Shown here: positions 1 through 16,247 of the stretch, piece by piece
Layout: each line of letters opens with the position of its first letter
Numbering within the stretch: position 1 is the first letter of the stretch
Origin: Promethearchaeota archaeon
Lineage (GTDB): Archaea; Asgardarchaeota; Lokiarchaeia; Sigyniarchaeales; SOKP01
Assembly: GCA_048938025.1 (NCBI GenBank)
Contig: JBHLMP010000028.1
Location: 34,300-50,546, forward strand
Length of the DNA stretch: 16,247 nucleotides
Direction: 5' to 3'
Notes under the pieces: model-generated
Told to the model about the DNA's origin: nothing
What the model saw: only the letters and a program-made list of their open reading frames with translations
The model's database searches: none
Translations under genes and position numbers: made by a program

Positions 1-117
1 GTTACTGGTGGCATAGGTGCTTCTGGTTTCTTAGGGAGTGGTGTTACTGGTGGCATAGGTGCTTCTGGTTTCTTAGGAGGTGGCGTTACTGGTGGTTTAG
101 GTGCTTCTGGTTTTGGT
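1..117 (-). repeat. Coding tandem repeat, 42-bp unit (14 aa, about P[P/L]PKKPEAPMPPVT)
   Basis: Units start with GTTACTGGTGG at 1, 43 and 85 on the + strand. Units 1-42 and 43-84 are nearly identical, 85-117 is a shorter 33-bp variant, and a degenerate copy follows at about 118-140. The array probably continues beyond the window. Confidence 0.9.
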
Positions 118-2654: not shown

Positions 2655-4926
2655 CCCAAAATATTGGTGTTTCCTCTCCATTTTGAGTCATCGAGGAACA
2701 AATCTTATTCAAATAATCCAGAGTATAATATATTTCTTCTTCTTCATCTGTCAATTGCCCAAATAACTCAAAACCTTTATTAATTATATAAGTCCCATCA
2801 AATGTTATATAAACATCCGTATTATACTCGTTCTTTATTTCTTGTAAAATATTTGTTCCATTTTCATCAAAATGGTTTTCTGGAGAAAATAAATCAATAT
2901 CATATTTCAAGAAAAAATCTGTTTCATTATAAAGAAGAGCTTCACTTTTATTGTCAAATGGATAATCATAATATTTAAAAACATGTTTCCAACCAAATTC
3001 TGAAATAATTACATTTCTATCAGAAGTATAACGAGAGTACCATCTGATATTAGATACATCTCTTCTCTTTAAATTGAAAACTTCAAACGCAACAGATTCA
3101 TAAAAATAAGTGGAAAATAATGAAAAGCATACTATAAATAAAATTAACATTTTCAATTTTATTGCTCTTATGGAACCAATCTTAATTAGTTTATAAATAT
3201 ATGACACAAATCCAATCACAATAGCAGGAGGAATTAAATATAAAATTCTCTGCCAAATCATATTGCTTAAAAATAAGATATTAAAAATAAAACCCGCACC
3301 TAAAAGAACCAAAAGACCTATAGCCCATAAAAACAATGGCTTTCCTTTTGGTTTTTTTTGATATAATACTAAACCCCAGACTGCAAAAGAACTAATAATT
3401 AGGATTTCAGCAACATAAAAGATATTTACTATATGAAAATTAAACCAAAAGAGGTTTGCTATTAAAAAAAGAAAAGTAAACGAGATTGTTATGCTAAATA
3501 TTAGTGGAATTATTATTTTCTCTTCTATTTTCTTATATTTTCCACTTCTTTTCCCTGTTATTATTAATTTGTATCTTCCTTTTGTGAAAATGATTGATTT
3601 TTGTACCTTCCATATAAAAAGTATTCCCACTATTCCTCCCGTGATTGCACCTAAAATAAGTAGATGAATGGGTAAATTTAATGGAATAAAAAACCAAAAA
3701 TGACCATAACCTATACCAAAGAAGCTTAAAGTTAAAAAGATACCAACTAATCCACATAAAAATATAAAATCAATCCCCCGTCTATAATCTTTTAAAAAGT
3801 ATATAAAATATAACCATAAAAAAGAGATTAATAAAATCATAGACGTAACAACATGTGTAAGAACAGCGCTAATAAAAATTAAGATTATTAGAATATAATA
3901 TAAAAAAATATCTTTTAAAATGAGGCTTTTAGAGGGTCGTTCGGGTTGAATTAAATCCTGCAATCTTACATATAGAAGAAAGAAAATTGCTAAGCATTTG
4001 ATCAGAGCAGAACCGGATGGCCAGTATTGAAGCATCATAGTAGAAAAACCTAAAGAAGAAAATTCTAATATAAATACACCAAAAATAGCTAAGTTTTTAT
4101 TTCTGAAGATTCTCTTCAGAATATTATAAAATATCAAGGCAGATACAAAAAATGTATAAAAGATAAAGTATCTTGGAATGAGTAAATGATTTATACCCGA
4201 GAAAAAATAAATCACTGCTCCAAATATATTTAAAGCCATAGTTCCATGATATCCTTCTAAAGGTAAATAATTGATATCAGTTATTATTCTACTATTAAGA
4301 ACATGGAGCCAAGGATCTGTCCCAAAAAAATAACTAACTTTAACAATATTTAAAACGCAAATTAAAAATATAAAAACTATCAATAAAAGGGCATTAATAG
4401 AAGTTAGCTTTTTAATGTAATTTAATAGGGAAAAATTGGGTAAATTCCGATTACCTTGTATTGACGATATGTCACTTCTAAGAAACTTATATGACCCGTG
4501 TTTAAATTCAGAAAAAATAATATAAAAAATAATGGGAAAGAATAAAATAATTATTGTAAAAAAGAAAAAAATCCCAGTTAAAGGGATTCCAAACCAATAC
4601 CCAATATATCCTATAAGTATATAGAAAACAGAATTAATAATAATAGTTAGACTCAGTTTCTCTAAAAAGTTAAAAGATTTTTCTCTAAGAATAATGAAAA
4701 AAAGAGGATAAGTAGGTAAGAATAGTATAGTAAAAACTGTACTAAAAGCAATAGCTACTTTATAAATGAAACCCAACAAGAATATATCAGATATTCCAAT
4801 AATTTCATCAATAGTAACTAATTTAAGAAAGATAATTCCTAAAACAATTAAAGAAAGAATGAAAATAAATAAATTTATTCTCGATTTGACTTTAAAAATT
4901 ATTTGGTTCAATCTAAACCTATTCAT
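2647..4926 (-). CDS. Large polytopic membrane protein, probable GT-C-fold glycosyltransferase (DUF2206/DUF6541-like)
   Basis: 759 aa with many hydrophobic TM segments. An external-loop motif GTDPWLH is followed by YHGT-like residues, and there is a soluble C-terminal domain. It is the last gene of the glycan locus, 14 bp downstream of the epimerase. Confidence 0.55.
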   Translation of the reverse strand: MNRFRLNQIIFKVKSRINLFIFILSLIVLGIIFLKLVTIDEIIGISDIFLLGFIYKVAIAFSTVFTILFLPTYPLFFIILREKSFNFLEKLSLTIIINSVFYILIGYIGYWFGIPLTGIFFFFTIIILFFPIIFYIIFSEFKHGSYKFLRSDISSIQGNRNLPNFSLLNYIKKLTSINALLLIVFIFLICVLNIVKVSYFFGTDPWLHVLNSRIITDINYLPLEGYHGTMALNIFGAVIYFFSGINHLLIPRYFIFYTFFVSALIFYNILKRIFRNKNLAIFGVFILEFSSLGFSTMMLQYWPSGSALIKCLAIFFLLYVRLQDLIQPERPSKSLILKDIFLYYILIILIFISAVLTHVVTSMILLISFLWLYFIYFLKDYRRGIDFIFLCGLVGIFLTLSFFGIGYGHFWFFIPLNLPIHLLILGAITGGIVGILFIWKVQKSIIFTKGRYKLIITGKRSGKYKKIEEKIIIPLIFSITISFTFLFLIANLFWFNFHIVNIFYVAEILIISSFAVWGLVLYQKKPKGKPLFLWAIGLLVLLGAGFIFNILFLSNMIWQRILYLIPPAIVIGFVSYIYKLIKIGSIRAIKLKMLILFIVCFSLFSTYFYESVAFEVFNLKRRDVSNIRWYSRYTSDRNVIISEFGWKHVFKYYDYPFDNKSEALLYNETDFFLKYDIDLFSPENHFDENGTNILQEIKNEYNTDVYITFDGTYIINKGFELFGQLTDEEEEIYYTLDYLNKICSSMTQNGEETPIFWVI

Positions 4927-4940
4927 ATTTCTTAGTTAAT

Positions 4941-5912
4941 TTAATTAATTTTCAAATTAACATTATATTTATTACAATACCAAGTAAAATAATCTCTTAA
5001 GCCTTGTTCCTGACTATATTGAGGTTGAAATCCAATTATCCCTTTAGCTTCAGAAATATCAGCGAAACTGTGCAAAATATCTCCTGGTCTAGGATCAGTG
5101 TAAATTATTTTTAAATTCTTTTTATCTGTAAGGTTAAGAATTAATTTTGCAAGATTGTTCAAAGTTATTGGAGAACCAGCACCAATATTTAAAATCTCTC
5201 CTGAAACATCATGTTCAGCAGCTATTAAATTTGCTTTTACTACATCCTTAATATAAGTAAAATCTCTTGATTGTTCTCCATCACCAAAAATTATCAAATC
5301 TTCATTATTAATAATTCTTCCCAGCCAAATTGCAATAACACCGCTATATGGAGAATCTTTTTGCCTTGGACCAAAAACGTTGAAATATCTTAATGATATC
5401 GTTTTTAATCCATAAACTTGATGAAATACCTGCATATATGCCTCACATGCCAATTTTGATACTCCGTAGGGAGAAATTGGTATCCTTGGCATATCTTCTT
5501 TTTTTGGTAAAGTAGGTGTATCACCATATACAGAAGAACTTGACGCAAAGATAATTTTTTCAACATTTTTTTTTCTTGCAGCATTTAATAAATTTAGTGT
5601 ACCATTTATATTGACATCATTGCAAGATTCTGGCATTTTTACTGATTGAGGGACACTTGTAAATGCTGCTTCATGAAAGATAATATCAATATCTTTTAAA
5701 ATGTCTATTAAAAAGTTAATATCTCTTATATCTCCTTTATGAAATTGAAAATTTCCATTTTTCAATGCCTCTTCTAAATTTTCAATCCGACCATTAAAAA
5801 GGTTATCTAAACCAATTACTTCTGCTCCAATTTCTAACAATTTATCAGTTAAATTACTTCCTATAAAACCAGCAGCTCCAGTAACTAAGATCTTTTTATC
5901 TTTAAGGTTCAT
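4941..5912 (-). CDS. NAD-dependent NDP-sugar epimerase/dehydratase (extended SDR; WbpP/GalE-like UDP-Glc(NAc) 4-epimerase)
   Basis: Motifs: Rossmann LVTGAAGFIGS, ASSSSVYG, catalytic YGVSK (YxxxK), LRYFNVFGPRQ, GDGEQSRDFTY and RPGDILHS. Confidence 0.92.
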   Translation of the reverse strand: MNLKDKKILVTGAAGFIGSNLTDKLLEIGAEVIGLDNLFNGRIENLEEALKNGNFQFHKGDIRDINFLIDILKDIDIIFHEAAFTSVPQSVKMPESCNDVNINGTLNLLNAARKKNVEKIIFASSSSVYGDTPTLPKKEDMPRIPISPYGVSKLACEAYMQVFHQVYGLKTISLRYFNVFGPRQKDSPYSGVIAIWLGRIINNEDLIIFGDGEQSRDFTYIKDVVKANLIAAEHDVSGEILNIGAGSPITLNNLAKLILNLTDKKNLKIIYTDPRPGDILHSFADISEAKGIIGFQPQYSQEQGLRDYFTWYCNKYNVNLKIN

Positions 5913-6065: not shown

Positions 6066-7202
6066 TTAATCTAAATCCTTTAAATATCCCATAAATCCTT
6101 CTTTATATTCTTTTGGACTCTTAGTTGGTCTTTTTAATTCTGATCTCGAATTCATTTTTATTTTTATTAATATTAAAATTGGTCCTTTTCGGTTTTTAAT
6201 ATTATCTATCGATTTTAATAATTCTTCTGAAGTTTCAACTCGAGTACTCCATTTATAGTTTGATGCTAGAGCAACATTAACGAAGTCAACATTAGGAGAA
6301 TTAGTTGGTTGACCACCTGTAGATTCATGAGCTTCATTATCCAAAATAATATGGACAAAATTAGTAGGGGAATTTTTTCCAATTGTGGTAAAAGCCCCCA
6401 TTTGCATAATAGCTGCGCCATCACCATCAAATACTATCACTCTATTTTTTGGTTTGTGTAGCGCGATACTTAATCCAATCGAGCTAGCACATCCCATAGA
6501 ACCAATATTATAAAAACTTTTATGATGATCTTTATTTTTTGACTCTCTATATTCATATAACTCTCGTGTAATGTAACCTGTAGTTGAAACAATGATTTCT
6601 TTATGATTCAAATTATCCATAATCAACTGAATTACTTCTTTAGTTGTTAAATTATATCTGTTTGATTGCTTAAATTTCATTTCATAATCTTTAAAGAAGC
6701 CTCTCTGAAAAATGAATGCGTAAGGACCTTTATTATCATTGAAATAATTTATAGCTTTAATCAGTTCATTTTTAACAACACTTAAATCGGGTTCCAATAT
6801 ACTATAAGGTATTTGGAGCGTGTCTAATAATGGTAAGGTAATCTTTCCCATTTTTTTATGTTGGGGAGCATCAATTTTTCCAGGTTCACCACGCCATCCT
6901 ATCATTAAAAGAATAGGAATTGAATGTACATCGGGATCACATAAAGATGTAAGAGGATTGACTGCCTTTCCAAGTCCAGAATTTTGCATATATACAATTC
7001 CTATTTTATTAGTTGCTAAATGATAACCAGATGCTAATGCAATAGCTTCACATTCATTACATGCAATGATATTTTTAAGTTCTTTACTAGCATTATCTGC
7101 TAAAAATTTCATCAAATCTTTAAAAGTTGAATCTGGAATTCCTGTAAAGAAGCTAAAGTTATTGTCTCTTAGGATTTCAAAAAATTTTTCACAAGAAATC
7201 AT
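6066..7202 (-). CDS. ppd: Phosphonopyruvate decarboxylase (ThDP-dependent, fused alpha/beta)
   Basis: Motifs: FFTGIPDS, NECEAIALASG, VYMQNSGLG, IGWRGEPG..DAPQH, STTG...RE, GSMGCASSIG, and the ThDP motif DGDGAAIMQMG...DNEAHESTGGQPT. It is clustered with PEP mutase. Confidence 0.93.
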   Translation of the reverse strand: MISCEKFFEILRDNNFSFFTGIPDSTFKDLMKFLADNASKELKNIIACNECEAIALASGYHLATNKIGIVYMQNSGLGKAVNPLTSLCDPDVHSIPILLMIGWRGEPGKIDAPQHKKMGKITLPLLDTLQIPYSILEPDLSVVKNELIKAINYFNDNKGPYAFIFQRGFFKDYEMKFKQSNRYNLTTKEVIQLIMDNLNHKEIIVSTTGYITRELYEYRESKNKDHHKSFYNIGSMGCASSIGLSIALHKPKNRVIVFDGDGAAIMQMGAFTTIGKNSPTNFVHIILDNEAHESTGGQPTNSPNVDFVNVALASNYKWSTRVETSEELLKSIDNIKNRKGPILILIKIKMNSRSELKRPTKSPKEYKEGFMGYLKDLD

Positions 7203-7224
7203 TTTACTTACATTACTTACTTTT

Positions 7225-7941
7225 TTACTTATTATTATTTAGATAATTTTTTACTCCTTCTAAATCTTCATGATCATCAATTTCCACACAAAATTCATTA
7301 TAAAAACAGGGTTTTAGAATAAGAGTATCTAAAATTTCATTTAAAGCATCTTCAGCATAGCAATTTACTTTGTTATTTTTTACAAATTTTTCTATATGAT
7401 TAAGCCAACTTAGCATAAATTCCTTAGTTAGTTTGTATAATGGAGCTAAGAATGCAGCATTAGGTCCAAACAAATTAACCCCTATCTTACTTACTCTATC
7501 ATTTAAAATAATTGCTTTAAAGTCTTTAACTGGAGGGGGAATTTCTTTGTTGACCAACACACAATCTTTTTCCTTCGAATCAAGTAATAACTTTACTAAA
7601 TTTTCAGAAAATATTAAATCTCCGTGAGAATATAAAACATCCTCATTAATCATGTCTTTTGCTAAATGTATGGAATATATGTAATTTGTTTTGTCATAAA
7701 GTGGATTATTAATATACTGAACATTAATTAACGGATAACGTTCATTAATATGATTTTTAATTTGATCCTCAAATGGACCTGTCGGAATGATAAAATCTTT
7801 AAAACCATGCTTAAGTATATTTTTTAATTGATGATCTAAAATTGTTTCATTGTTACTAATTTTAACAAGACATTTTGGTTTAGTATTGGTTAGTGGTGCC
7901 AATCTTTTACCTATTCCTGCATTCAATAATATAACTTTCAT
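7225..7941 (-). CDS. LicC/PntC-like NTP transferase (phosphocholine/phosphonate cytidylyltransferase family)
   Basis: Motifs: N-terminal ILLNAGIGKRLAPLTNTKPKCL, NPLYDKTNYIYS, HGDLIF and C-terminal EIDDHEDL. Its start overlaps the ADH stop (ATGA at 7941-7938). Confidence 0.85.
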   Translation of the reverse strand: MKVILLNAGIGKRLAPLTNTKPKCLVKISNNETILDHQLKNILKHGFKDFIIPTGPFEDQIKNHINERYPLINVQYINNPLYDKTNYIYSIHLAKDMINEDVLYSHGDLIFSENLVKLLLDSKEKDCVLVNKEIPPPVKDFKAIILNDRVSKIGVNLFGPNAAFLAPLYKLTKEFMLSWLNHIEKFVKNNKVNCYAEDALNEILDTLILKPCFYNEFCVEIDDHEDLEGVKNYLNNNK

Positions 7942-9074
7942 CTTATTTCTTCTAAAATATTTCTTAATTGAGGTTCTGTCAATAATCTAGGATTTTTTTT
8001 AACTCGTTCAGGATTAAAACCATTTTTTATAATTATTTCAATATCTTCTTGGGATTTTATCCCTAAATCTTGTAACTTTATTTCTAATCCAATATCTATC
8101 ATTAAATCTTTGATTTTTTCTTTTGCTTCAATAAAACTAGAAACACCTATTATGGAGATCAATTCACTCATAGTTTTCTTTACATATTCAACTCCACGTG
8201 TATCCAATACATCCTTTTCATTGACTTCTGAATTAAAGACAATCATAGAGGGTAGGGTTAAAGCTACAGCATGACCATGGGGTATATTAAAATATGAGGT
8301 AATAGGATATGAAATAGCATGACAAGCTGTTGTCTTTGTGATATTTATTGCTTTTCCCGCGTAATTAGCAGCAAGTGCCATGTTATATCTAGATTCTTCA
8401 TTAGGATTATTAACTGCCTTTAATAAATTATTAATAATCAATTCTATTGCTTTTTTAGCGAATCTTTTTGATACATCTGTAGAATTGATATTCCAATAAG
8501 ATTCTATTCCCTGACTTAATGCATCCATTCCTGTGTAAGCAGTAACTCTTTTTGGAAGAGTATATGTTAATTCAGGATCAACAATTACATAATTAGCATA
8601 TAAATAATTAGGATCTGCTAAAGAGTATTTTGTTTTATCAATAAAAACTACGGCAAAATGAGTTGCTTCACTACCCGTTCCTGTTGTAGTTGGTATTAAT
8701 ATTAATGGAGTACCTTTTCTATTAATTTTTAATTTTTTTAAAATATAGTCTTCAATTTTTCCTTTATTAGTAGAGAAAATTGACACACTTTTTCCAATAT
8801 CTAAAACAGATCCCCCTCCCATAGCTATAATTAAATCATAATTCCCTTTCCTAAACAAATTTAATGCCTTTTTAATACCTTCGATTGTGGGAGTAGGTTC
8901 AATATCATTAAAATGAAAAAATTTACATTCTTTTTCAATTATGTATTTAACTTTATCAATATTACCCTGTTCCAATGGTGAATTACCTGTAATATAAAAG
9001 ACGTTTTTAAGGTGATTTTCTATTAAAATTGTTCGGAGATTTTTAACAGAACCCTTTCCAATAAATTCATTCAT
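7938..9074 (-). CDS. Iron-containing (group III) alcohol dehydrogenase, probable phosphonoacetaldehyde reductase (PhpC/FomC/Pdh-like)
   Basis: Motifs: GGGSVLDIGK, IPTTTGTGSEATHFAV, DALSQGIESYW, TTACHAISYP and HGHAVA. It lies between pepM and ppd. Confidence 0.88.
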   Translation of the reverse strand: MNEFIGKGSVKNLRTILIENHLKNVFYITGNSPLEQGNIDKVKYIIEKECKFFHFNDIEPTPTIEGIKKALNLFRKGNYDLIIAMGGGSVLDIGKSVSIFSTNKGKIEDYILKKLKINRKGTPLILIPTTTGTGSEATHFAVVFIDKTKYSLADPNYLYANYVIVDPELTYTLPKRVTAYTGMDALSQGIESYWNINSTDVSKRFAKKAIELIINNLLKAVNNPNEESRYNMALAANYAGKAINITKTTACHAISYPITSYFNIPHGHAVALTLPSMIVFNSEVNEKDVLDTRGVEYVKKTMSELISIIGVSSFIEAKEKIKDLMIDIGLEIKLQDLGIKSQEDIEIIIKNGFNPERVKKNPRLLTEPQLRNILEEIR

Positions 9075-9102
9075 ATTCCTAATCCACTTTCTAAGAAAAA
9101 TA

Positions 9103-10812
9103 TCATATTAATTTTTCAGCAATTTCAACATCTTTTTTATTATGAATCTCAAACCATCCTTTATGAACTTCTAAAATATCTACTCTAAAGCCCCTATCTA
9201 TTACTTCTTGTATAAGATCTGTAAATGATGCTTTCTCAATTGAATTTGCTTCATGAAAAAACCCCTTATGATTCAACTTACAATCATTATATATACTTCG
9301 AATGATATTAACTCCTGTTTCAGAGAAGTATGCTATACCAGTAAACTCAAAATCCGCCATGTCTTTATTAATTGTTTTCCCTATTCGTATAATCTCGTTC
9401 TTTATTTGATATAAATCTCTCGTTTGTTCACTAGGCTGATTTTTTGTTAAAACAAGGTCAAGAATTTTATCAATTTCATGTTTATGATAAGTATAAGAAT
9501 TATCTAATACTAAAATAATATCTCCCCTTGCATTGAGAAGATTTTTTATTATTTGTTCATTAAACAATATATCAGAGCATATAAAAATAAATCCACCCTC
9601 CATATCTTCTTCAGCTTTAAACAGAGAATGTAGAATATAATATTGATCATACTCATCATTATCAATGTATTTTACTCCTTCGATATCAAATACATTCTTA
9701 TTAAATCCTCTAATAACTATTATATTATTAATACCGCAATTCTTTAATGTTTCTATTTGTCTTTGGAGAACTGGTTTACCTTTTAAAGATATCATTCCCT
9801 TTGGAATATTAAACTCAGGATTTCTACCCGCGGCTGGAATAATGACTTTTGTAGGTCCTTTAATATATATCATATCTTTTTCCTTAACATCTAAAAAACC
9901 TACATCCTTAAAAACTGTTTTAACAGGACTACACATTGATTCAGCCTCAAAAGCTCTTTTATTCCTTAATATAATCGAAGCTGTTTCCTTCATAGCTTTA
10001 TGAGCTGCACGTAAAAGATGGTTAGCATATATAACGATGTTAAAACCATGCTCCTTTAATTCGTTCTCTGTAATTGTATTATAGGTAGTAGGGATACAAA
10101 CTAGAGGTTTTCTAAAACCTAACTCTTTTGTTAATTTCTCATATTCTTTAGCAAATTCCAAAATTTCTCTAGGATCACTTTGCTTCGAATGAATCATTAT
10201 TCCATCTGCACCTGCTAGTGAATACTTCTTAGCCCTATAAATAGCATCTTCTAATCCTGAACCAGCTATCAAACTTTCAATTCGAGCAACAATCATAAAA
10301 TCATCAGAAATTTGAATGCCTTTACCCCTTTTAATTTTTGTAGCAAAAATATCTGGGTCTTCTTGATCTTGGATAGTACCGCCTTCTAAACTATTTCTCT
10401 TCGGAAATTTTTTATCCTCAATAATTACCATTGATACACCCATATCTTCTAATGTACGAACAAAGTATTCGAAATTTGCTGCTTCACCTCCAGTATCTCC
10501 ATCAATAATTATAGGTTTATTAGAACCATTTAATATTTGTCGAAGAGTCTCATATCTAGATTCAACACCTAAAACTTCAATATCGGGATATCCTTTAGCA
10601 GCACTATCTGTAAAACTGCTGGCCCAAAAACCGTCAAATTCAAGGATTTCATCTTGGCTTGTTTCTTTTATATTATTAGCTATAATAGCACTAAGACCAT
10701 TGTGGGCTTCTATGATTCTTACTAAATCTTTATTCTGAAGTAGATCTTTAAGCAATCTTCTCCTTTCATCGGGCAAGATCCTGCTTTTTAGTTTCAATTC
10801 CATTATACTCAC
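9103..10812 (-). CDS. pepM: Phosphoenolpyruvate mutase fused to a C-terminal cytidylyltransferase-like (PntC/LicC) domain
   Basis: The PepM-specific loop EDKKFPKRNS (EDKxxxxxNS) is at 10390-10419, with EAHNGLSA, DGDTGG, ARIESLI and IYANHLLRA. The second domain starts at KVIIPAAG (about 9850). The start is GTG 10812 or ATG 10803. Confidence 0.96.
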   Translation of the reverse strand: MSIMELKLKSRILPDERRRLLKDLLQNKDLVRIIEAHNGLSAIIANNIKETSQDEILEFDGFWASSFTDSAAKGYPDIEVLGVESRYETLRQILNGSNKPIIIDGDTGGEAANFEYFVRTLEDMGVSMVIIEDKKFPKRNSLEGGTIQDQEDPDIFATKIKRGKGIQISDDFMIVARIESLIAGSGLEDAIYRAKKYSLAGADGIMIHSKQSDPREILEFAKEYEKLTKELGFRKPLVCIPTTYNTITENELKEHGFNIVIYANHLLRAAHKAMKETASIILRNKRAFEAESMCSPVKTVFKDVGFLDVKEKDMIYIKGPTKVIIPAAGRNPEFNIPKGMISLKGKPVLQRQIETLKNCGINNIIVIRGFNKNVFDIEGVKYIDNDEYDQYYILHSLFKAEEDMEGGFIFICSDILFNEQIIKNLLNARGDIILVLDNSYTYHKHEIDKILDLVLTKNQPSEQTRDLYQIKNEIIRIGKTINKDMADFEFTGIAYFSETGVNIIRSIYNDCKLNHKGFFHEANSIEKASFTDLIQEVIDRGFRVDILEVHKGWFEIHNKKDVEIAEKLI

Positions 10813-10972
10813 TTTAATTTCTCATAAATTTAGAGTAATGACTTATTTAAAAATAATTAAGTATATTAAATTTCCAATCTATTGATATAAAAATTTAATT
10901 TAAGATAAGTATTTAAAGAAACTATGATTAATTAGCTTTTTCTTTTAAGTATTACATAAGTTATCAGAAATT

Positions 10973-10983
10973 AAAAAAAAAAA
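10973..10983 (-). terminator. Oligo-T (T11) archaeal-type terminator after the MFS gene
   Basis: A run of 11 A on the + strand gives T11 on the coding strand, 3 nt after the MFS TAA stop. Confidence 0.55.
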
Positions 10984-10986
10984 GTT

Positions 10987-12297
10987 TTAAAGGTACTCTC
11001 TTCTTTTTGGCATGCTTTTCCAATCAAATAATAGGACTATTCCACCTACTAAAGCAACGATTATCCAAAGCGTAAAAGCGGCTCCAGAACCAGCAGCATC
11101 AATAAGAGCGCCTGATGTAAAAGTTGTAATAGCAGCTCCAATATATCCAACTCCATCAATAAATCCACAAGCAGCAGAAGATGCTTTTCTTGTACCAAAT
11201 TCCATGGGAATTGTAGAAACTAGAAGTGCGTGAGGTCCAAAATTTAAAAAGCCTATTAATATCAAGACAGGAATTCCAAAAACCATATCAAGTGGTGGTA
11301 ACAATGTATATAAAAATAAAGTAAATGCCAAACCAATAAAAAGAGCGCAAACTACAGGCATTCTTCTTTTTTTAAGATATTTGTCTGAAACCCATGCAGC
11401 GATAATAACGCCAATTGTACCCCCTATAGGGTAAAAAATGGATTTCCATGTGCCAAAGTATTCGGCACCCGTTATTTCAGGACTTAATAAATATGGGAGC
11501 CAGTCAGTTAATCCATATCTAACTATATTTAAACAAAATAACCCAAATGCTGCAAAGAGAACAGTTTTAGTCTTAATCACTGTGTTAAGAGTATACTTAA
11601 AACCCACGAATTCATCAGGACGGCATTCTCCCATTACTATTTTACCATCACATTCTTCTTCTAAAGTTGGTAAACCAACCTCTTCAGGAGCATTTCTACT
11701 ACGGGTATAAAAATGAATTGCCATGAAAACCATGATAATCCCTGGAATAATAAAAGAAAAACGCCAGTTCAGACTGAATGTGTCAGTAATAAGTATTGCA
11801 ATAATCCATGATATGACTCCTCCAAGTAGATATGAAGTGGCAAGTCTACTAGACCATTTCCCTCTTTCATCTGGAGGATGCCAATTCGCAATGGTTTTTA
11901 CGGAAGGCGCCCATCCCATTGCTTGGAAATAACCATTCAAGCCCCAAAAAAGAAATGCTACCCAAATAAAATCAAATGCAACTCCCATTAATAAATTTAA
12001 AGCTGAAGACACAATTAAGCCGAGAGTAATAAAACGTCTGGCACCAACTTTATCACCCAAAAAACCATTAAAAAATTGTCCAAATGCATAAGCAAGAAGA
12101 AAAGTCGAACTTACTAGTCCCATTAAAGTAGCGGAATATGCACCAAATTCATCCATGATGAAGGGTTTTGCTATTGCGTAATTATTACGTCCTATATAAT
12201 AGATTATATATGTAATCCAAACAGTGAAAAATATTCGCCTTCGCCAGGATTTGAATTGTTTTTTAACTTCATTTTCATTAGTAATTGCTTGACTCAT
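10987..12297 (-). CDS. MFS transporter, organophosphate:Pi antiporter (OPA; GlpT/UhpT/PgtP/SLC37-like) family
   Basis: 12-TM MFS pattern. Motifs: YYIGRNNY (GlpT YYLVRKNF-like), GFLGDKVGARR (motif A), NGYFQAMGWAP, W.PPDERG, RNAPEEVGLP, VRYGLTDWLP (GlpT LRYGILDWSP-like) and AACGFIDGVGYIG. Confidence 0.9.
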   Translation of the reverse strand: MSQAITNENEVKKQFKSWRRRIFFTVWITYIIYYIGRNNYAIAKPFIMDEFGAYSATLMGLVSSTFLLAYAFGQFFNGFLGDKVGARRFITLGLIVSSALNLLMGVAFDFIWVAFLFWGLNGYFQAMGWAPSVKTIANWHPPDERGKWSSRLATSYLLGGVISWIIAILITDTFSLNWRFSFIIPGIIMVFMAIHFYTRSRNAPEEVGLPTLEEECDGKIVMGECRPDEFVGFKYTLNTVIKTKTVLFAAFGLFCLNIVRYGLTDWLPYLLSPEITGAEYFGTWKSIFYPIGGTIGVIIAAWVSDKYLKKRRMPVVCALFIGLAFTLFLYTLLPPLDMVFGIPVLILIGFLNFGPHALLVSTIPMEFGTRKASSAACGFIDGVGYIGAAITTFTSGALIDAAGSGAAFTLWIIVALVGGIVLLFDWKSMPKRREYL

Positions 12298-12327
12298 ATC
12301 TTTTTATCCCTTTTTTAATTATATATT

Positions 12328-13101
12328 TTATATTTTACCTTCTTTAATTAATTGTTTAGCAAATTCATAATCTTGGTCTGTGTCCAATTCAACCCAACTT
12401 CCTTCTATATCTACTGAATACATAGGATATCCTCTAAAAATGAGTTCTTCAAACATATCTGTTAAGTATGCTTTTTCAAAGGTTGTAGCATCGTGAAAAC
12501 GTCCTGCAAACTTGCAAGTTTTATTGTACTTTGCACGATTGTAATTACGAGTTAGAATTTCAGCACCTTTTTTAGAAATTTTACCAAGACCTATGAATTC
12601 TCCATAAGCGATATCAGGATTGAAAAATTTAGAAAGGTGAATTACCTTACCATCTTCCACAAGAACTAATTCTGCTTCATCTGTAGGATGTTTTGTGCGC
12701 CCCTCGTATCGGTCTCTCCAAGCTGTATCTACTACAAGGCTAAAATCATGTTGAGAATCTAGTAGTTTCTGAACAACTTCTTTACTAAAAAGAATGTCTG
12801 AATATGTGAATACAAATTCATCATCCATCTCTGGTTCAGCATAAAATAGCGATTCTAGAATATTATTGTTATAAAAATCATCATTATCATAATATCTAAA
12901 ATTAGGAAAGTCAATTGTTTCTTTCTGATAACCTCGAATAATAACTATATCATTAATACCACAGCTATAAAATGTCTCTAAAGTTCGATCAAGTATCGTT
13001 TTTCCTTCAATTTCTAATAGGCATTTAGGTTTATATTCTGTGAATGGCCGTAATCTAGTACTGGGTCCAGCAGCTATAATTATAGCTTTCATATTTTCCA
13101 C
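12328..13101 (-). CDS. LicC/PntC-like NTP transferase (phosphocholine/phosphonate cytidylyltransferase family)
   Basis: Motifs: KAIIIAAGPSTRLRPFTEYKPKCLL, NNILESL, YSDILF, GEFIGL, AYLTDMFEELI and WVELDTDQD. The start is GTG 13101 or ATG 13092. Confidence 0.9.
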   Translation of the reverse strand: MENMKAIIIAAGPSTRLRPFTEYKPKCLLEIEGKTILDRTLETFYSCGINDIVIIRGYQKETIDFPNFRYYDNDDFYNNNILESLFYAEPEMDDEFVFTYSDILFSKEVVQKLLDSQHDFSLVVDTAWRDRYEGRTKHPTDEAELVLVEDGKVIHLSKFFNPDIAYGEFIGLGKISKKGAEILTRNYNRAKYNKTCKFAGRFHDATTFEKAYLTDMFEELIFRGYPMYSVDIEGSWVELDTDQDYEFAKQLIKEGKI

Positions 13102-13293
13102 ATTTTTTAATATACTTTATAACTATTTTTTATTTATTCAGTAAGTAGATTTTTATGAAAATTATATATTTTTTATATTTGTTTCGGATTGGTATATAGT
13201 TTATATATTACAAAAAAGTTGATTGATATTCGATCGAAAATAATATTAAATAAGTATAGAATAGTGCTAAACCAGAAGAAAAGTTATAAAAGA

Positions 13294-14799
13294 TTAATTG
13301 TAATATTTTCTAACATATTTATTAAAGTATAGGGGAAAATACAAAATCCAAACAACTATTTCTTTCCATCTTTGAAATAACTGATTCCTGCGTGCTATAA
13401 TTGATCTCATTACGAATTTTAAATAACCAGTTTTGTTAAGTTGATTAGATAATTCGTTTAATTGGGTATCTAGGATTGTAAATTTTTTTGAATAACGTTG
13501 ATACTTTTTATATAATTTCTTTAAACCATATCCAGTTAATCTATTATAAATAAGAACAGTTGTAATATCTTTATTTTTTGATAATACTGAATTAGAAACA
13601 TCAGATAATTCTACTATTTTATTCTTTCTTTGTAGGTTCTCTTTAAGAAATTTTATTAATTGAGAGGGAAATTGTTTAGGAATTAAAATTGTTTCAGATT
13701 CTATTGAAGGTAAAATGCTCTTGCTATAAAGAGTATTTAAAGTGCTTTTAATGATTTCATAAGCTTTTAGTTCTGTTTTTAAATAAAAATGATATAACTC
13801 ATTATAAATTTCAGGATAATTTTCTTTAATATCTTTTTTTTCAAGGGGGTCCTTATTTAGGTTAAATAATGAAAATTTTCCATTATCATTACGCAATTTC
13901 CAATTGTTTTTTGTAATCATGGTTTTTTTAATTGATTGAAACATTAAATAACAATCTCCTCGAATAATTCGGTTTTTGTTAACATTAATATCTTTTTCTA
14001 TCAACTCTTTAAAAGAAATTGATTCTCTGTCATGATTAGCTTTGAGATTTAGATAATCAAGTATAGTATCAATGATATCAAGTAAATAAACACGGCTTTT
14101 AATCGTTTTTGGAGGAGAATCAGTTAATGAACTTGGTAATTTTATAAATAAAGCAGGTTGCATAGAGGATTGGTGAATATCATCAAAATGTAATAACTTA
14201 GTTTTTTTATATAAATTCTTATCATAATATCCATGATCAGAATTAAGAATGAAAATTGCATTATCCCAAAATCCATTTTCCTTTAAATAATCAATAATCT
14301 TATTAACATAAAAATCAACTTGAGTATCACTCGGTCTAAAGAATACGAAAAAGAAGTTATTCTCATTAGAGGGGGATTCTTTGATTGTTTCCATGAAAAT
14401 ATGATAAATTTCATCGGCATCTAACCAATGATCACCCTGATATAACTCTTTAATATAAACTGGGTTAAGAATTTCCTTTACAATTTCTACCTGTTCCCTC
14501 CCAAAAATAATTGATTGTATATTATAATTCTCTTTTTTTAAAGGGAAAATACAATTTTCATATTCTAGACTGGGAATATTTTCAATTGAGCGATAATAAT
14601 CAGGAAATATATAATATGGGAATCTGCCAGTTAAAAATGATAGAAGAGATAAATTAGTTGATGGGAATTGAGAAAGGGCATCTTCAAAATAAAAACCTTC
14701 CTTGTTTTTTTTTAATTTTTTATATATTGGAAGTAGCCCATGTAGATCAGATCTTTCATAATTACAAATTGAATCAGTCACTATCCAAAAAATATCCAT
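13294..14799 (-). CDS. Alkaline phosphatase/sulfatase-superfamily protein with a Thr at the nucleophile position and an unknown C-terminal domain
   Basis: Motifs: metal-ligand IVTDS (D9), FPSTNLSLLSFLTGRFP (T48, no CxPxR), ILNSDHG, and a sulfatase-like C-terminus (LLDIIDTILDYL; LFNLNKDPLEKKDI). An SD-like AGGTG lies just upstream of the ATG. No signal peptide is visible. Confidence 0.8.
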   Translation of the reverse strand: MDIFWIVTDSICNYERSDLHGLLPIYKKLKKNKEGFYFEDALSQFPSTNLSLLSFLTGRFPYYIFPDYYRSIENIPSLEYENCIFPLKKENYNIQSIIFGREQVEIVKEILNPVYIKELYQGDHWLDADEIYHIFMETIKESPSNENNFFFVFFRPSDTQVDFYVNKIIDYLKENGFWDNAIFILNSDHGYYDKNLYKKTKLLHFDDIHQSSMQPALFIKLPSSLTDSPPKTIKSRVYLLDIIDTILDYLNLKANHDRESISFKELIEKDINVNKNRIIRGDCYLMFQSIKKTMITKNNWKLRNDNGKFSLFNLNKDPLEKKDIKENYPEIYNELYHFYLKTELKAYEIIKSTLNTLYSKSILPSIESETILIPKQFPSQLIKFLKENLQRKNKIVELSDVSNSVLSKNKDITTVLIYNRLTGYGLKKLYKKYQRYSKKFTILDTQLNELSNQLNKTGYLKFVMRSIIARRNQLFQRWKEIVVWILYFPLYFNKYVRKYYN

Positions 14800-14846
14800 C
14801 TTAGCACCTTGATATAGTAGAATAGAATATTTGTATTTCTATTTTT

Positions 14847-15959
14847 TTAATTTTCTAAACTCTTTTCATACGTCTCTAAAACAGTTTTTGCACTTTCTTT
14901 CCAAGAATATAATTTTACTCTTTCTAAACCTTTAGCTATTAAATTTTTCCTTAAATTTTCATCTTCCAAAACTTTTATTAATTTGTTTGCCAATTCAACG
15001 GGATCTTTATTATTATCTAATATTAAAGCCGCATTGCCAACTATCTCCGGAATGGCAAATGCATCAGATGTTATGACAGGACATCCACATGCCATTGCTT
15101 CAAGATTAGGGATACCAAAACCTTCGAAAAGTGAAGGAAATACAAATATTTCTGCTAAATTTAGAAGTTTAACGACATCTTCTCTTGGAATAAAGCCGGT
15201 AAAAATAATATTATTTTCAATTTTATTTTTTTTAATGGATTCTAGTATTTCCTTATTTTGCCAACCATTACCCCCTATTACAAGTTTAATGTCTTTTTTA
15301 TGTTCTGTCAAAATTTTGAAAGCATTAAGAATTGTCCATGGGTTTTTTCTTTCAGAAAATCTACTTAAATGGAAAATATACGGACCTTCAATTCCATATC
15401 TTTTTTTTATTTCAAATGGTTTCTGTTTGTATAATTTAAAATCATCGTCTGCCGAATTATAGGTTATAACAATTTTACTTTCATCATATCCATAATTTTT
15501 AATAATTAGATTTTTTGAAGTATTGGAAACTGTAAAAATATAATCCATTTTTTTAACATAAAAAGGCCTAATATATTTTGTACGAAATAATTTAACTTTC
15601 CCATAAATATGTCGTAGAAGTATTTGGGAGCCTCCTCCTCCATGAATCGTGGCAACTTTTTTTGTTTTTCTTAACCAAATGGGTGAAAGAATATTTAATG
15701 GAGAATAATGAATTAGATCAAACTTTTCCCTTTCAAGTTTAAGCGATGCTATAAGGGGATTCCTAGGAATTATTAATTCTTGAGCATTTTTATATAATTC
15801 ATTCTCATTTTTAACATAATGTATAAGATTAATCTCAAATCTATCATTTATCTCTAAAATATGCTGAACTAAATGCTTTAAATGAAAACCACTACCACTC
15901 ATTCCTTGGTCAATTGGCCTTGTTATAATCCCAACTTTAGGTTTCCTATTTCTCTTCAT
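14847..15959 (-). CDS. Glycosyltransferase family 4 (GT-B, retaining)
   Basis: Motifs: SRFSERKN, FTGFIPREDV, FVFPSLFEGFGIPNLEAMACGCPVITS (ExxxxxxxE) and YSWKESAK. Confidence 0.93.
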   Translation of the reverse strand: MKRNRKPKVGIITRPIDQGMSGSGFHLKHLVQHILEINDRFEINLIHYVKNENELYKNAQELIIPRNPLIASLKLEREKFDLIHYSPLNILSPIWLRKTKKVATIHGGGGSQILLRHIYGKVKLFRTKYIRPFYVKKMDYIFTVSNTSKNLIIKNYGYDESKIVITYNSADDDFKLYKQKPFEIKKRYGIEGPYIFHLSRFSERKNPWTILNAFKILTEHKKDIKLVIGGNGWQNKEILESIKKNKIENNIIFTGFIPREDVVKLLNLAEIFVFPSLFEGFGIPNLEAMACGCPVITSDAFAIPEIVGNAALILDNNKDPVELANKLIKVLEDENLRKNLIAKGLERVKLYSWKESAKTVLETYEKSLEN

Positions 15960-15997
15960 TATAATTTTGATATTTTAAATGAATTGGTAAGAATTTA

Positions 15998-16247
15998 TTA
16001 ATTAATTGAATTATAGATCTTAATAACATCTTTCTCAATACTTCTATATTTAGTTATCGTAAAAGCTATTAATACAATCAACAAAAAAAAGACATAAGTC
16101 GTTACTAGAAATTTTAAAATCCATAATAAATCAAAATAAATGTATAACAAATATCCAATGAAAAATACTGTTGTTATTAACATAGTATGACTAAAAGCAT
16201 TAATTAGATTGATAATTATCCCCTTAAATAATTTAGATCCTCCTTTT
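15998..16247 (-). CDS. C-terminal fragment of a membrane protein (5'-truncated by the window edge)
   Basis: The frame of the 61-aa track ORF stays open to the window end (KGGSKLFKGIIINLINAFSHT-MLITTVFF...), so the track's ATG is probably internal. It has two hydrophobic helices and a basic tail; the family cannot be determined. Confidence 0.65.
   Translation of the reverse strand, partial: KGGSKLFKGIIINLINAFSHTMLITTVFFIGYLLYIYFDLLWILKFLVTTYVFFLLIVLIAFTITKYRSIEKDVIKIYNSIN

Follow-up and report, generated by a model that had tools for sequence, protein, structure and literature searches.

A predicted gene island for 2-hydroxyethylphosphonate synthesis and phosphonyl tailoring in a Promethearchaeota archaeon

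The window analyzed here, a stretch of 16,247 nucleotides whose end is the end of its contig, carries on its minus strand (positions 6066-16247) a gene island that we read, with a probability of roughly 65%, as directing the synthesis of 2-hydroxyethylphosphonate (HEP), its activation with CTP, and its attachment to a membrane-bound glycan or lipid ("phosphonyl tailoring"). The host is a Promethearchaeota (Loki-type Asgard) archaeon. All of the genes named in an earlier, sequence-only reading of this DNA were found in place, and the features of the window are as follows.

3-1031, small GTPase of the Arf/Ras/Roc type (profile match)
2647-4926, minus strand, TM759, a 759-residue polytopic membrane glycosyltransferase of GT-C fold (predicted structure)
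4941-5912, minus strand, NAD-dependent sugar-nucleotide epimerase/dehydratase (PF01370, 226.9 bits)
6066-7202, minus strand, Ppd, phosphonopyruvate decarboxylase (TIGR03297, both TPP domains)
7225-7941, minus strand, NT238, LicC/PntC-like nucleotidyltransferase with canonical signature (PF00483, 51.5 bits; PF12804)
7938-9074, minus strand, Fe-ADH, group III iron-type alcohol dehydrogenase (PF00465, 129 bits; PF25137, 138 bits)
9103-10812, minus strand, PepM fusion, PEP mutase (residues ~20-310) with a C-terminal PF12804 nucleotidyltransferase-like domain (~320-569) (TIGR02320, EDKKFPKRNS)
10987-12297, minus strand, MFS transporter of the organophosphate:phosphate antiporter (OPA) type, GlpT/PgtP/UhpC-like (PF07690, 161.6 bits)
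12328-13101, minus strand, NT257, LicC/PntC-like nucleotidyltransferase with canonical signature (PF12804, 50.3 bits)
13294-14799, minus strand, Sulf501, alkaline-phosphatase-superfamily (sulfatase-fold) protein with Thr48 at the nucleophile position (PF00884, residues 160-251 only)
14847-15959, minus strand, GT4 (GT-B fold) glycosyltransferase (PF00534, 144.9 bits; PF13439)
15998-16246, minus strand, C-terminal 82 residues of a CDP-alcohol phosphotransferase, open-ended ORF (alignment to relatives)

Host lineage and genomic setting

The Asgard origin claimed for the contig held up. The PepM fusion has 22 full-length relatives (68-86% identity), 20 of them labeled Promethearchaeota or Promethearchaeia, one Odinarchaeota, and one "uncultured archaeon," and the block and its flanks are syntenic across at least seven, and up to about a dozen, independent MAGs, so that the contig is not chimeric. 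Across the lineage, an above-threshold PepM was found in 17 of the 54 genomes surveyed for the genus and in 42 of the 400 surveyed for the phylum. Contamination with bacterial DNA, or a chimera in which the phosphonate genes are not Asgard, might be suspected from the contamination estimate of the source MAG (5.1%), from the patchy distribution of PepM inside the genus, and from the closest non-Asgard homologues of PepM, NT238, Fe-ADH, and Ppd, which are bacterial. We give this explanation next to no credence: identity to those homologues is only 28-49%, the f1 PepM sequences form one clade with a long stem (support 100/100), GC is evenly low throughout the window, the runs of four studies hold nearly identical stretches of the flank as well as of the cluster, and at least seven independent MAGs share the junctions that join the island to an Asgard-type flank (TM759, orf262, orf163, and the small GTPase).

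The description of the cluster as complete was wrong, because the contig stops within it; the 82-residue ORF at the severed end is the tail of a longer CDP-alcohol transferase, 49-57% identical to the C termini of six proteins of 268-291 residues in syntenic loci. At the other end, the supposed longin-GTPase is a GTPase in which no longin domain was detected, and the supposed roadblock gene is unconfirmed, its 163-residue product having no Pfam match at E ≤ 1 and weak atlas leads to Roadblock/LC7 only. TM759 has no Pfam match either; its AF2 model (pTM 0.81) superposes on yeast STT3 with a VIA-align Z of 18.7 (rmsd 3.4 Å over 319 residues), the top 40 entries of a structure search are all of GT-C fold, the WWD motif is absent, and D204 is invariant. 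The GT-C fold proposed earlier is thus real, but TM759 and the flanking genes are also present at sites where the island is absent and so form a conserved flank that is not island-specific. The epimerase, rightly identified, is a variable accessory gene between core and flank, found at the same position in nine related loci (L009-L012, L018, L020, L023, L027, and L029) and missing from that position in L014, L015, L017, and L019.

The predicted route to HEP

The first step is well supported by sequence: PepM would turn PEP into phosphonopyruvate, and decarboxylation by Ppd to phosphonoacetaldehyde would draw the unfavorable mutase reaction forward. Both genes had been recognized correctly, scoring above their NCBIfam equivalog cut-offs (PepM, 352.4 bits against 319.55 for TIGR02320; Ppd, 437 bits against 312.5 for TIGR03297, with both TPP domains found). 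The PepM motif EDKKFPKRNS is present, the EDK-x5-NS pattern occurs in all 47 PepM domains retained of the 48 found, and the domain matches the PDB PepM 5unc (E 5.8e-49). We take the fusion to start at the ATG at 10803, not the GTG at 10812, because the collection's own gene call is 566 residues long. In its C-terminal domain (PF12804 at residues 323-430; best PDB match, LicC), the canonical Arg of the nucleotidyltransferase signature is missing, and none of the 28 local copies or the 107 readable database copies has it; with this atypical signature the domain may be catalytically altered or regulatory. Other Asgard families have a PF01467-PepM architecture.

Gene context suggests that Fe-ADH would reduce phosphonoacetaldehyde to HEP in the second step. 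It is the sole enzyme of the block that could act on this aldehyde, adjoins PepM in all 21 Asgard loci extending that far, and overlaps the start of NT238 with its stop by 4 bp (ATGA). According to PMC8942020, the HEP class is recognized by Ppm, Ppd, and Fe-ADH without a competing enzyme. A genome-wide profile search found no AEP transaminase above cut-off, the best scores being 158 bits for a cut-off of 361 and 109 bits for a cut-off of 401, both on another contig, and each of the 14 control genomes also gave matches to the same aminotransferase models. The PepM/Ppd/ADH route to HEP proposed earlier therefore stands as regards the genes present and the lack of an above-threshold transaminase, but HEP itself is read from gene context only, and Fe-ADH reaches 197 bits with the phosphonate Fe-ADH model TIGR03405 against a cut-off of 424 (NCBIfam), falling below the cut-off of every other specific model too. 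All 21 Asgard copies, moreover, carry Gln at a position that we take to be a metal ligand and that is His in 10 of the 11 homologues from bacterial clusters; because of this substitution the activity and substrate of the enzyme are unproven, and we treat it as a candidate phosphonoacetaldehyde reductase.

The low model scores and the Gln would also suit an enzyme that does not reduce phosphonoacetaldehyde, the product then being AEP (through an unlinked aminotransferase such as the generic class-V enzyme of 158 bits found elsewhere in the genome), phosphonoacetate, or methylphosphonate (through an unlinked MpnS). We regard this as improbable, given that Fe-ADH is strictly kept in the core and overlaps NT238, that the aminotransferase lies far under its cut-off and the same models respond in every control genome, and that the block contains no aldehyde dehydrogenase or cupin.

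Activation, modular layouts, and candidate transferases

Family membership suggests that, in the third step, a LicC/PntC-type nucleotidyltransferase would convert HEP and CTP to CMP-HEP. The three cytidylyltransferase-like domains and the CMP-type activation proposed earlier were borne out at the family level, all three domains being LicC/PntC-like with LicC as best match. NT238 is the likeliest candidate for the HEP cytidylyltransferase, because it invariably accompanies the core and begins within the overlap at the end of Fe-ADH; of the 22 Asgard loci, 20 have it together with PepM and two are cut short. It has homologues of 36-42% identity in 16 of 18 bacterial PepM loci, and matches LicC (E 7.6e-11) and 6pd1 (E 5.8e-9) in the PDB. 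NT257, which matches LicC 1jyk (E 2.4e-15) and also 6pd1, is a paralogue of the PepM-fused domain (34% identity, E 6e-47 to PepM residues 322-569) and always adjoins the MFS gene, including in a genome without PepM. Sequence does not reveal which nucleotide and substrate NT238 and NT257 would use; according to PMC6697681, characterized PntCs favor AEP, fusions of Ppm to PF12804 or PF01467 are established, and Fom1 forms CMP-HEP.

When loci are compared across genomes, four genes (PepM fusion, Fe-ADH, NT238, and Ppd) form a core that is paired with alternative transferases: Sulf501 in the window and 12 further loci, and, in five loci, a CDP-glycerol transferase of the TagF type (PF04464, 271 bits). 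This variety of transferases with a single core was counted for a CMP-donor logic. The OPA transporter and NT257 are a separable module: nine of the 22 Asgard PepM loci lack the MFS gene, the genome G002 has MFS, NT257, Sulf501, GT4, CDP-OH, and Wzx genes at the same site with PepM absent, and neither module adjoins TM759 in the stretches read of G003 and G005. The transporter is of the OPA type, as had been recognized, with TIGR00881 as its best model (230 bits, below the cut-off of 408; UhpC 199 and GlpT 189 bits), and the module would probably import an external organophosphate or phosphonate and activate it as a CMP/CDP derivative for the same transferases. That the MFS protein exports a diffusible, antibiotic-like phosphonate seems very improbable. 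HEP and CMP-HEP are indeed intermediates of fosfomycin-type pathways as described in PMC6697681, but no radical SAM, cupin dioxygenase, ATP-grasp, or NRPS gene was found in the window or in the Pfam-scanned parts of relatives' flanks, the transporter is an antiporter type that many of the loci lack, and the adjoining genes are those of glycan or lipid assembly.

Under the tailoring reading, the phosphonyl group would in the fourth step be handed to a lipid or lipid-linked glycan at the cytoplasmic membrane face, the candidates being Sulf501, the CDP-alcohol phosphotransferase, or both. Assembly of the glycoconjugate, its flipping across the membrane, and its delivery would then fall to GT4, a Wzx-type flippase, and the GT-C enzyme of the flank. 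The sulfatase fold claimed for Sulf501 was confirmed (AF2 pLDDT 91.8; Foldseek top E 5e-16), and metal and nucleophile positions are conserved (invariant D9, S47, D188-H189-G190, and H204), but by motif the protein is not a sulfatase, as the alignment of homologues shows no formylglycine C/S-x-P-x-R and has Thr/Ser at that position. Named homologues come nearly all from Asgard-labeled records, none was found in 18 bacterial PepM loci (tblastn, E ≤ 1e-5), and there is no characterized close relative. The modeled fold makes Sulf501 a candidate phosphonyl/phosphoryl transferase, which by analogy with other alkaline-phosphatase-superfamily transferases would act through a covalent Thr48-phosphonyl intermediate. 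GT4, correctly named earlier, reaches the cut-off of no NCBIfam equivalog and has homologues of 56-66% identity in 6 of 12 loci of the MFS/NT257 layout; relatives' loci encode a Wzx-type flippase and a CDP-alcohol transferase, in keeping with the glycan or lipid setting first proposed.

The product could instead be a membrane phosphonolipid made by the CDP-alcohol phosphotransferase, which would either use CMP-HEP to place the HEP-phosphonyl group on a lipid alcohol (archaeol or polyprenol) or join CDP-archaeol to the free hydroxyl of HEP, giving a phosphonate-terminated head group. The transferase at the cluster end has archaetidylinositol-phosphate synthase as its best NCBIfam match (39.8 bits, below cut-off), and its L011 homologue matches PF01066 (28 bits, cut-off 22) and, in the PDB, the archaeal AF2299 (E 3.9e-7), all of which would suit such a role; PMC8942020 predicts phosphonolipid products for bacterial Ppm/PntC clusters that contain CDP-OH transferases. 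However, the enzyme accompanies Sulf501 in all eight loci of the MFS/NT257 layout reaching far enough upstream, occurs with that module even without PepM, and was detected in none of the seven PepM loci of the other layout; it travels with the import module, not the PepM core. Its neighbors are GT4, the Wzx flippase, and sugar-nucleotide genes, other layouts have a glycan-directed TagF-type transferase, and His replaces the last signature Asp of the enzyme, whose catalytic motif falls outside the window. We consider a phosphonolipid possible but unlikely.

Relation to known phosphonate systems

The bacterial Pnt pathway (Tde1415, Ari1348; Rice et al. 2019, PMC6697681) likewise joins a PepM-PF12804 fusion and stand-alone LicC-like nucleotidyltransferases in a cluster, with Ppd driving the route and cell-surface glycans or lipids as the setting. 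Its characterized PntCs use AEP and sit with an AEP transaminase (PMC6697681), whereas the Asgard island has Fe-ADH instead, which places it on the HEP branch; the fused Asgard domain also lacks the canonical Arg, and the host is archaeal. The Fom1/FomC steps of fosfomycin synthesis, as cited in PMC6697681, have the chemistry proposed here (group III ADH to HEP, PepM-fused cytidylyltransferase to CMP-HEP), but the Fom1 domain is an N-terminal PF01467, unlike the C-terminal PF12804 of the island, which is without the downstream fosfomycin tailoring genes. An archaeal PepM/Ppd/ADH route to HEP with a cell-associated product is described for the methylphosphonate cluster of Nitrosopumilus maritimus (PMC8942020; bioRxiv 2020.11.04.368217). 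That organism belongs to another phylum, and the Asgard PepM differs in being fused. The N. maritimus cluster presumably also holds nucleotidyltransferase and sulfatase-like genes. Because Pfam detected no MpnS-like gene in the window or the scanned parts of relatives' flanks, HEP, not methylphosphonate, is the likely moiety.

A Ppm/Ppd/PhpC-type neighborhood also underlies the HEP-decorated exopolysaccharide of the actinobacterium Stackebrandtia nassauensis (cited in PMC8942020), where HEP is a glycan decoration as it would be here. The same source describes Burkholderiales "CDP-OH" clusters, which likewise have a Ppm-PntC fusion, a second PntC, and a CDP-alcohol phosphatidyltransferase, and Selenomonas "multiple sulfatase" clusters, which likewise combine pepM with sulfatase-family genes; these are AEP/1-hydroxy-AEP clusters, unlike the HEP-type Asgard island, which is further set apart by a Sulf501 family almost confined to Asgard-labeled records. 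We found no paper describing phosphonate biosynthesis in Asgard archaea, and to that extent the novelty suggested earlier stands, but these proteins already bear the NCBI name "phosphoenolpyruvate mutase [Promethearchaeota archaeon]," and a cold-seep BGC survey (PMC11051675) tallies phosphonate BGCs in six unnamed archaeal phyla. The island would thus represent a known kind of pathway, the bacterial HEP route with phosphonyl tailoring, in a new lineage and with some unusual sequence variants.

Gene content and origin of the phosphonate island

Pfam and NCBIfam scans of the window returned the gene list of the sequence-only reading and confirmed by gene content that a phosphonate cluster is present, with 2-hydroxyethylphosphonate as its predicted product. 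Twelve of the 13 window genes lie on the minus strand, with orf262 as the sole exception, in DNA of low GC content (0.23-0.37 per kb).

Features of the window, from high to low coordinates
15998-16246, minus strand: open-ended 82-aa ORF, no family match in Pfam or NCBIfam
next in order, minus strand: GT4 glycosyltransferase (Pfam/NCBIfam scan)
after GT4, minus strand: Sulf501, 501-aa sulfatase-fold protein, PF00884 match on residues 160-251 only
after Sulf501, minus strand: NT257, 257-aa nucleotidyltransferase-like protein, PF12804
after NT257, minus strand: MFS transporter, best models all organophosphate:Pi antiporters (PgtP/UhpC/GlpT), all below cut-off
after the MFS gene, minus strand: PEP mutase with C-terminal PF12804 domain (PepM fusion), TIGR02320, motif EDKKFPKRNS
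7938-9074, minus strand: group III Fe-ADH, PF00465
after Fe-ADH, minus strand: NT238, 238-aa nucleotidyltransferase, its ATG overlapping the ADH stop by 4 bp
after NT238, minus strand: phosphonopyruvate decarboxylase (Ppd), TIGR03297
after Ppd, minus strand: NAD-dependent epimerase/dehydratase (Pfam/NCBIfam scan)
after the epimerase, minus strand: TM759, 759-aa polytopic protein, no family match
1866-2654, plus strand: orf262, 262 aa, no Pfam match
1264-1755, minus strand: orf163, 163 aa, no Pfam match
3-1031, minus strand: Arf/Ras/Roc-type small GTPase with a proline-rich tail (Pfam/NCBIfam scan)

The interpretation placed on these genes, a complete cluster for synthesis, activation and transfer of 2-hydroxyethylphosphonate (HEP) to an Asgard surface, was largely right, with corrections to its completeness, to the sulfatase reading of Sulf501 and to the place of the GT-C protein. 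The cluster is cut: the contig stops at the end of the window, and in relatives the 82-aa ORF runs on into a membrane protein of 268-291 aa.

The window forms the final 16 kb of contig C20 in a metagenome-assembled genome (MAG) of 3.52 Mb in 88 contigs, with completeness of 96.7% and contamination of 5.1%. Scanning named genome records brought up 40 PepM loci, 22 of which hold the full-length fusion at 68-86% identity; 20 of these carry the Asgard labels Promethearchaeota or Promethearchaeia, one is labelled Odinarchaeota and one "uncultured archaeon." The remaining 18 loci are bacterial (Bacillota, Synergistota), are 45-49% identical and mostly match over just the PepM domain. When the window was mapped onto the 40 loci, all 14 of its proteins recurred in the same order in four MAGs (loci L010, L011, L020 and L027), and three more MAGs share this order minus one or two accessory genes, with partial copies of the island on several shorter contigs. 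The shared order runs from the tail of a CDP-alcohol (CDP-OH) transferase through GT4, Sulf501, NT257, the MFS transporter, the PepM fusion, Fe-ADH, NT238, Ppd, the epimerase (where present) and TM759 to orf262, orf163 and the GTPase. Because the junction between phosphonate genes and Asgard flank recurs independently across MAGs, a chimeric contig is very unlikely, and the doubts over taxonomy and chimerism that accompanied the sequence-only reading were settled in favor of an Asgard origin. Flank and cluster alike are matched by short, near-identical Logan contigs, which come from four studies (30/30 depth bins in three runs and 28/30 in the fourth), none of them spanning the window, so that continuity is not provable from them. 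The sides of the many apparent joints in these contigs measure just 20-49 letters, with most below 30, and the joints were disregarded as cross-matches; depth was greatest over the small-GTPase domain (bin 543-1084), as expected of a conserved multi-copy domain.

An N-terminal extension of ∼60 aa, a helical middle and a proline-rich, repetitive tail cut off by the start of the window mark this GTPase, which has a paralogue of 30% identity on the same contig, ∼12 kb upstream of the window (L050). Both orf262 and orf163 are kept in the island flank of all related MAGs at 64-97% identity, and orf163 gave weak protein-atlas leads to Roadblock/LC7 clusters (0.87-0.89).

Enzymes of the proposed HEP branch and of predicted nucleotide activation

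The identities of PepM and Ppd, the predicted mutase and decarboxylase, are secure from their equivalog scores and the PepM motif. PepM reached 352.4 bits against TIGR02320 in the window scan (cut-off 319.55) and 354.5 bits in a genome search, and Ppd reached 437 bits against TIGR03297 (cut-off 312.5) with both TPP domains, PF02776 and PF02775, present. [quoted passage not shown] A catabolic reading was rejected, with the phosphonopyruvate hydrolase model giving 162 bits against a cut-off of 374, PepM giving 352, and Ppd acting in the biosynthetic direction.

The third enzyme of the branch is identified differently. Fe-ADH falls under every specific cut-off, including that of the phosphonate-associated TIGR03405 (197.2 versus 423.7 bits), and for this reason its role as phosphonoacetaldehyde reductase comes from context only. 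A PDB sequence search returned generic alcohol, methanol, propanediol and lactaldehyde dehydrogenases and no phosphonate-specific structure. The context consists of its adjacency to PepM, seen in all 21 Asgard loci that reach that far, the short overlap with NT238, and the lack of competing enzymes, from which we infer a candidate phosphonoacetaldehyde reductase. Within the block there is no aldehyde dehydrogenase or aminotransferase gene, and no AEP transaminase passed its cut-off in the genome, where the best matches (158 versus 361 and 109 versus 401 bits) lie on another contig; the same models also give matches in 14/14 control genomes. No MpnS/HEPD-type cupin dioxygenase was found in the window or in the scanned stretches of L011 and L021. 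In the classification set out in PMC8942020, the HEP class is defined by Ppm, Ppd and Fe-ADH without competing branch enzymes, and the cluster, with its PF00465 protein next to Ppm and Ppd and no competing enzyme, is by this rule a HEP-class neighborhood.

One residue of this Fe-ADH is unusual. GGGS, Asp-184, His-252 and His-266 are invariant in 32/32 sequences, and residue 188 is glutamine in all 21 Asgard copies and histidine in 10 of the 11 bacterial cluster homologues. We take position 188, in the pattern D-x3-H, to be a metal ligand and the canonical ligands to be one aspartate and three histidines.

Three nucleotidyltransferase domains are present, namely the stand-alone NT238 and NT257 and the domain fused to PepM. 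All three pass the Pfam cut-off (PF12804/PF00483) with LicC as the best PDB match for each, NT238 and NT257 additionally matching 6pd1, and they are of the LicC/PntC type, with CTP and HEP as putative substrates. Such combinations have precedents: according to Rice et al. (PMC6697681), PF12804 fusions make up a third and PF01467 fusions a quarter of Ppm enzymes, Ppm clusters often combine fused and stand-alone nucleotidyltransferases, CMP-AEP is made by PntCs, and CMP-HEP is made by the fused CyTase of Fom1.

NT257 and the fused domain are paralogues (34% identity, E 6e-47), while NT238 is only a distant relative of the latter (23%). Both stand-alone proteins carry the canonical N-terminal nucleotidyltransferase signature, G-x-G-x-R-L followed by P-K. 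In the fused domain (window 9103-10140), PAAG-x-D/N-P-x-F-x-IPK stands where the canonical form reads G-x-G-x-R-L...KPK, and the loss of the signature arginine, together with a shortening by ∼5 residues at this point, was seen in 28/28 local copies and in 107/107 readable database fusions, the signature pattern having matched nothing in the other 13 of the 120 listed. Of the 22 Asgard loci, 20 have NT238 next to the core and the remaining two are cut short. Homologues 36-42% identical to it are present at 16 of 18 PepM loci from bacteria, and 10 of those loci also have Fe-ADH and Ppd homologues. Because it travels with the Asgard core and has homologues at bacterial PepM loci, NT238 is the best candidate for a predicted HEP cytidylyltransferase.

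Candidate transferases and the modular island

Sulf501 is well modeled (AF2 pLDDT 91.8) and has the sulfatase/alkaline-phosphatase fold (top Foldseek E 5e-16, TM about 0.5), so the earlier assignment to a sulfatase fold stands. A sulfatase function was rejected for want of C/S-x-P-x-R, the formylglycine motif of sulfatases; the site reads Thr-48-N-L-S-L, with neither proline nor arginine, and the protein is better filed as an alkaline-phosphatase-superfamily hydrolase or transferase. Position 48 is threonine in 17 and serine in 2 of 19 aligned sequences, and Asp-9, Ser-47, Asp-188-His-189-Gly-190 and His-204 are invariant. There is no N-terminal signal or membrane segment, and the protein ends with an extra α/β domain and a long hydrophobic helix (471-500); it would probably be a membrane-associated enzyme at the cytoplasmic face. 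The family is nearly confined to Asgard-labelled and sediment records, with 59 matches of at least 46% identity before a fall to 38% or less, and in the protein atlas it meets only generic "sulfatase-like hydrolase/transferase" clusters.

The 82-aa ORF, which has no domain match by itself, is probably the last 82 residues of a CDP-alcohol phosphotransferase. The full-length L011 homologue matches PF01066 (28 bits versus 22) and the archaeal CDP-alcohol phosphotransferase AF2299 (E 3.9e-7), its best NCBIfam model being archaetidylinositol-phosphate synthase, well under cut-off. The signature of these enzymes is D-x2-D-G-x2-A-R-x8-G-x3-D-x3-D. The motif falls outside the window; in the relatives, 6/6 full-length copies read D-x2-D-G-x2-A-R-x8-G-x3-D-x3-H, and alignment to AF2299 confirmed histidine for the last aspartate. 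Upstream of the CDP-alcohol gene, L011 continues with another small PF12804 protein, a Wzx-type Polysacc_synt flippase and an epimerase.

The MFS transporter stays below the subfamily and equivalog cut-offs (TIGR00881 230 versus 408, UhpC 199 versus 564, GlpT 189 versus 633), and at family level its predicted resemblance to the OPA transporters holds, all best matches being of that type.

TM759 has no Pfam match; its structure model (pTM 0.81) aligns to STT3, AglB, PglB, ALG, ArnT, DPY19, Pmt and Aft, best to STT3 (Z 18.7, rmsd 3.4 Å, 319 residues). The top 40 structural matches are all GT-C, after which Z drops from 8.6 to 6.2, and Foldseek ranks 1-23 are GT-C too. An AglB-type oligosaccharyltransferase was rejected as its identity: WWDxG is the motif of STT3/AglB enzymes, and WW[DE] is absent from TM759 and all 20 aligned homologues. 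An invariant Asp-204 is located after the first core helix. All named members among the 199 relatives detected are Asgard-labelled or from marine sediment metagenomes, and TM759 is, on its modeled fold, a GT-C enzyme of an undescribed family. The GT-C fold proposed from sequence was thus borne out, and membership of the phosphonate island was not, TM759 being part of the conserved flank.

Across loci, the core of PepM fusion, Fe-ADH, NT238 and Ppd is combined with different partners. In the first layout, found in the window and in the 8 loci that reach far enough, the partners are Sulf501, MFS, NT257, GT4 and the CDP-alcohol transferase; in the second (L023, L029) there is Sulf501 alone; and in the third, at 5 loci, a TagF-type CDP-glycerol transferase (PF04464, 271 bits), followed in L021 by a dTDP-rhamnose gene set. 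Of all the evidence, the pairing of one four-gene core with different kinds of CDP/CMP-donor enzyme speaks best for CMP-HEP as the core's output. It also points to MFS and NT257 as an import-and-activate module of their own that would supply the same transferases. Genome G002, of the same genus and with no PepM, has TM759, MFS, NT257, Sulf501, GT4, the CDP-alcohol transferase and Wzx at this chromosomal site. Genomes G003 and G005 have TM759 and then epimerases only within the stretches read, the G005 contig ending ∼1.8 kb past TM759.

Beside the TagF-type island of L021 lie two genes for proteins with eukaryote-like signature domains, one of 551 aa with weak UQ_con and RWD matches (16085-17740, minus strand) and one of 903 aa with a Cnd1/HEAT match (6313-9024, plus strand). 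At L009 (14741-17416), ∼2.7 kb separate Ppd from the epimerase versus ∼150 bp in the window.

HEP carries a phosphonate as well as a free hydroxyl and is thus a possible bifunctional building block. Loki-type Asgard archaea might then use CMP-HEP in the manner of bacterial CDP-glycerol, yielding on the envelope a hydrolysis-resistant, teichoic-acid-like poly(hydroxyethylphosphonate) or a lipid with a phosphonate head group, a reading to which we give roughly one chance in eight. The builder would be the Thr-nucleophile alkaline-phosphatase-fold transferase, the His-variant CDP-alcohol transferase or the TagF-like enzyme, and interchangeable de novo and import modules would supply the same machinery.

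Distribution, exchange and significance

Among 400 genomes of the phylum, 42 encode a PepM that scores above cut-off; within the genus the figure is 17 of 54. Counting from the listed rows, 31 of the 42 have a long fusion with PF12804, which in 30 cases belongs to family f1, and 11 have a shorter form (G038, G035, G171, G172, G053, G073, G080, G102 and others). In G038 (L003:1495-2802, minus strand), a 435-aa protein joins an N-terminal PF01467 cytidylyltransferase-like domain to PepM, a Fom1-type layout, followed by Ppd, with a PALP (PLP-dependent) gene adjoining. Similar PepM frames of 429-442 aa, with higher TIGR02320 scores (373-412 bits), occur in f2, f13, f16 and a single genome of f1, and family f15 has a 311-aa frame (393 bits). 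In G226, of the same genus, the sole match is to 52 N-terminal PepM residues (C87:36796-36954), broken by one TGA and one TAA, possibly the remains of an island that was lost.

The PepM tree was built from 47 domains after a length/stop filter had removed L013. In it the f1 fusions group together with 100/100 support at the end of a long stem, and the two subclades of this group correspond to the two island layouts. The tree is unrooted, was sampled by query-pattern matching and has long branches that meet, and hence gives no donor or direction of transfer. Within the genus, the window is a mosaic. Its flank, Ppd, NT238 and Fe-ADH are closest to L029 (85-97% identity), to which PepM is only 70% and Sulf501 66% identical; to L010, PepM is 86% and Sulf501 82% identical, and PepM, NT257, MFS and Sulf501 together are at 82-93%. 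Because ancestry switches there from L029-like to L010-like, the sequences suggest cassette exchange by recombination within the genus, with a breakpoint between the Fe-ADH and PepM genes (∼9074-9103).

No account of phosphonate biosynthesis in Asgard archaea turned up in the literature searched. A RefSeq-based inventory takes in 12 archaeal phosphonate neighborhoods and has no word beginning "Loki" (PMC8942020), a cold-seep study reports Asgard phnWX catabolic genes (PMC12106651), and another cold-seep survey puts phosphonate BGCs in six unnamed archaeal phyla (PMC11051675). NCBI pipeline names for these Asgard proteins are already PEP mutase, and the pathway type is already known. New here are its occurrence in this lineage and several details: a Thr-type partner with the alkaline-phosphatase fold that is specific to Asgard archaea, a CDP-alcohol transferase with the His variant, a fused domain that lacks the Arg, and an island of modular build.

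Cultured Asgard members bear elaborate surface protrusions, and to our knowledge the chemistry of the Asgard cell envelope is almost unknown. A conserved island that places a C-P compound on the envelope would be a concrete, testable feature of these organisms, and a poly(hydroxyethylphosphonate) or phosphonate lipid, if it exists, would add a new class to the envelope polymers or lipids of archaea, and this in the prokaryotes most closely related to eukaryotes. The step of CMP-phosphonate transfer is, as far as we know, unsolved in bacteria too, and the modular layout, in which three alternative transferases accompany one biosynthetic core and the import/activation module is separable, offers natural controls for finding the transferase. 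With PepM in about one-tenth of the representative genomes of the phylum, Asgard archaea are therefore a plausible, uncounted source of phosphonate in anoxic marine sediments, which would bear on sediment phosphorus cycling.
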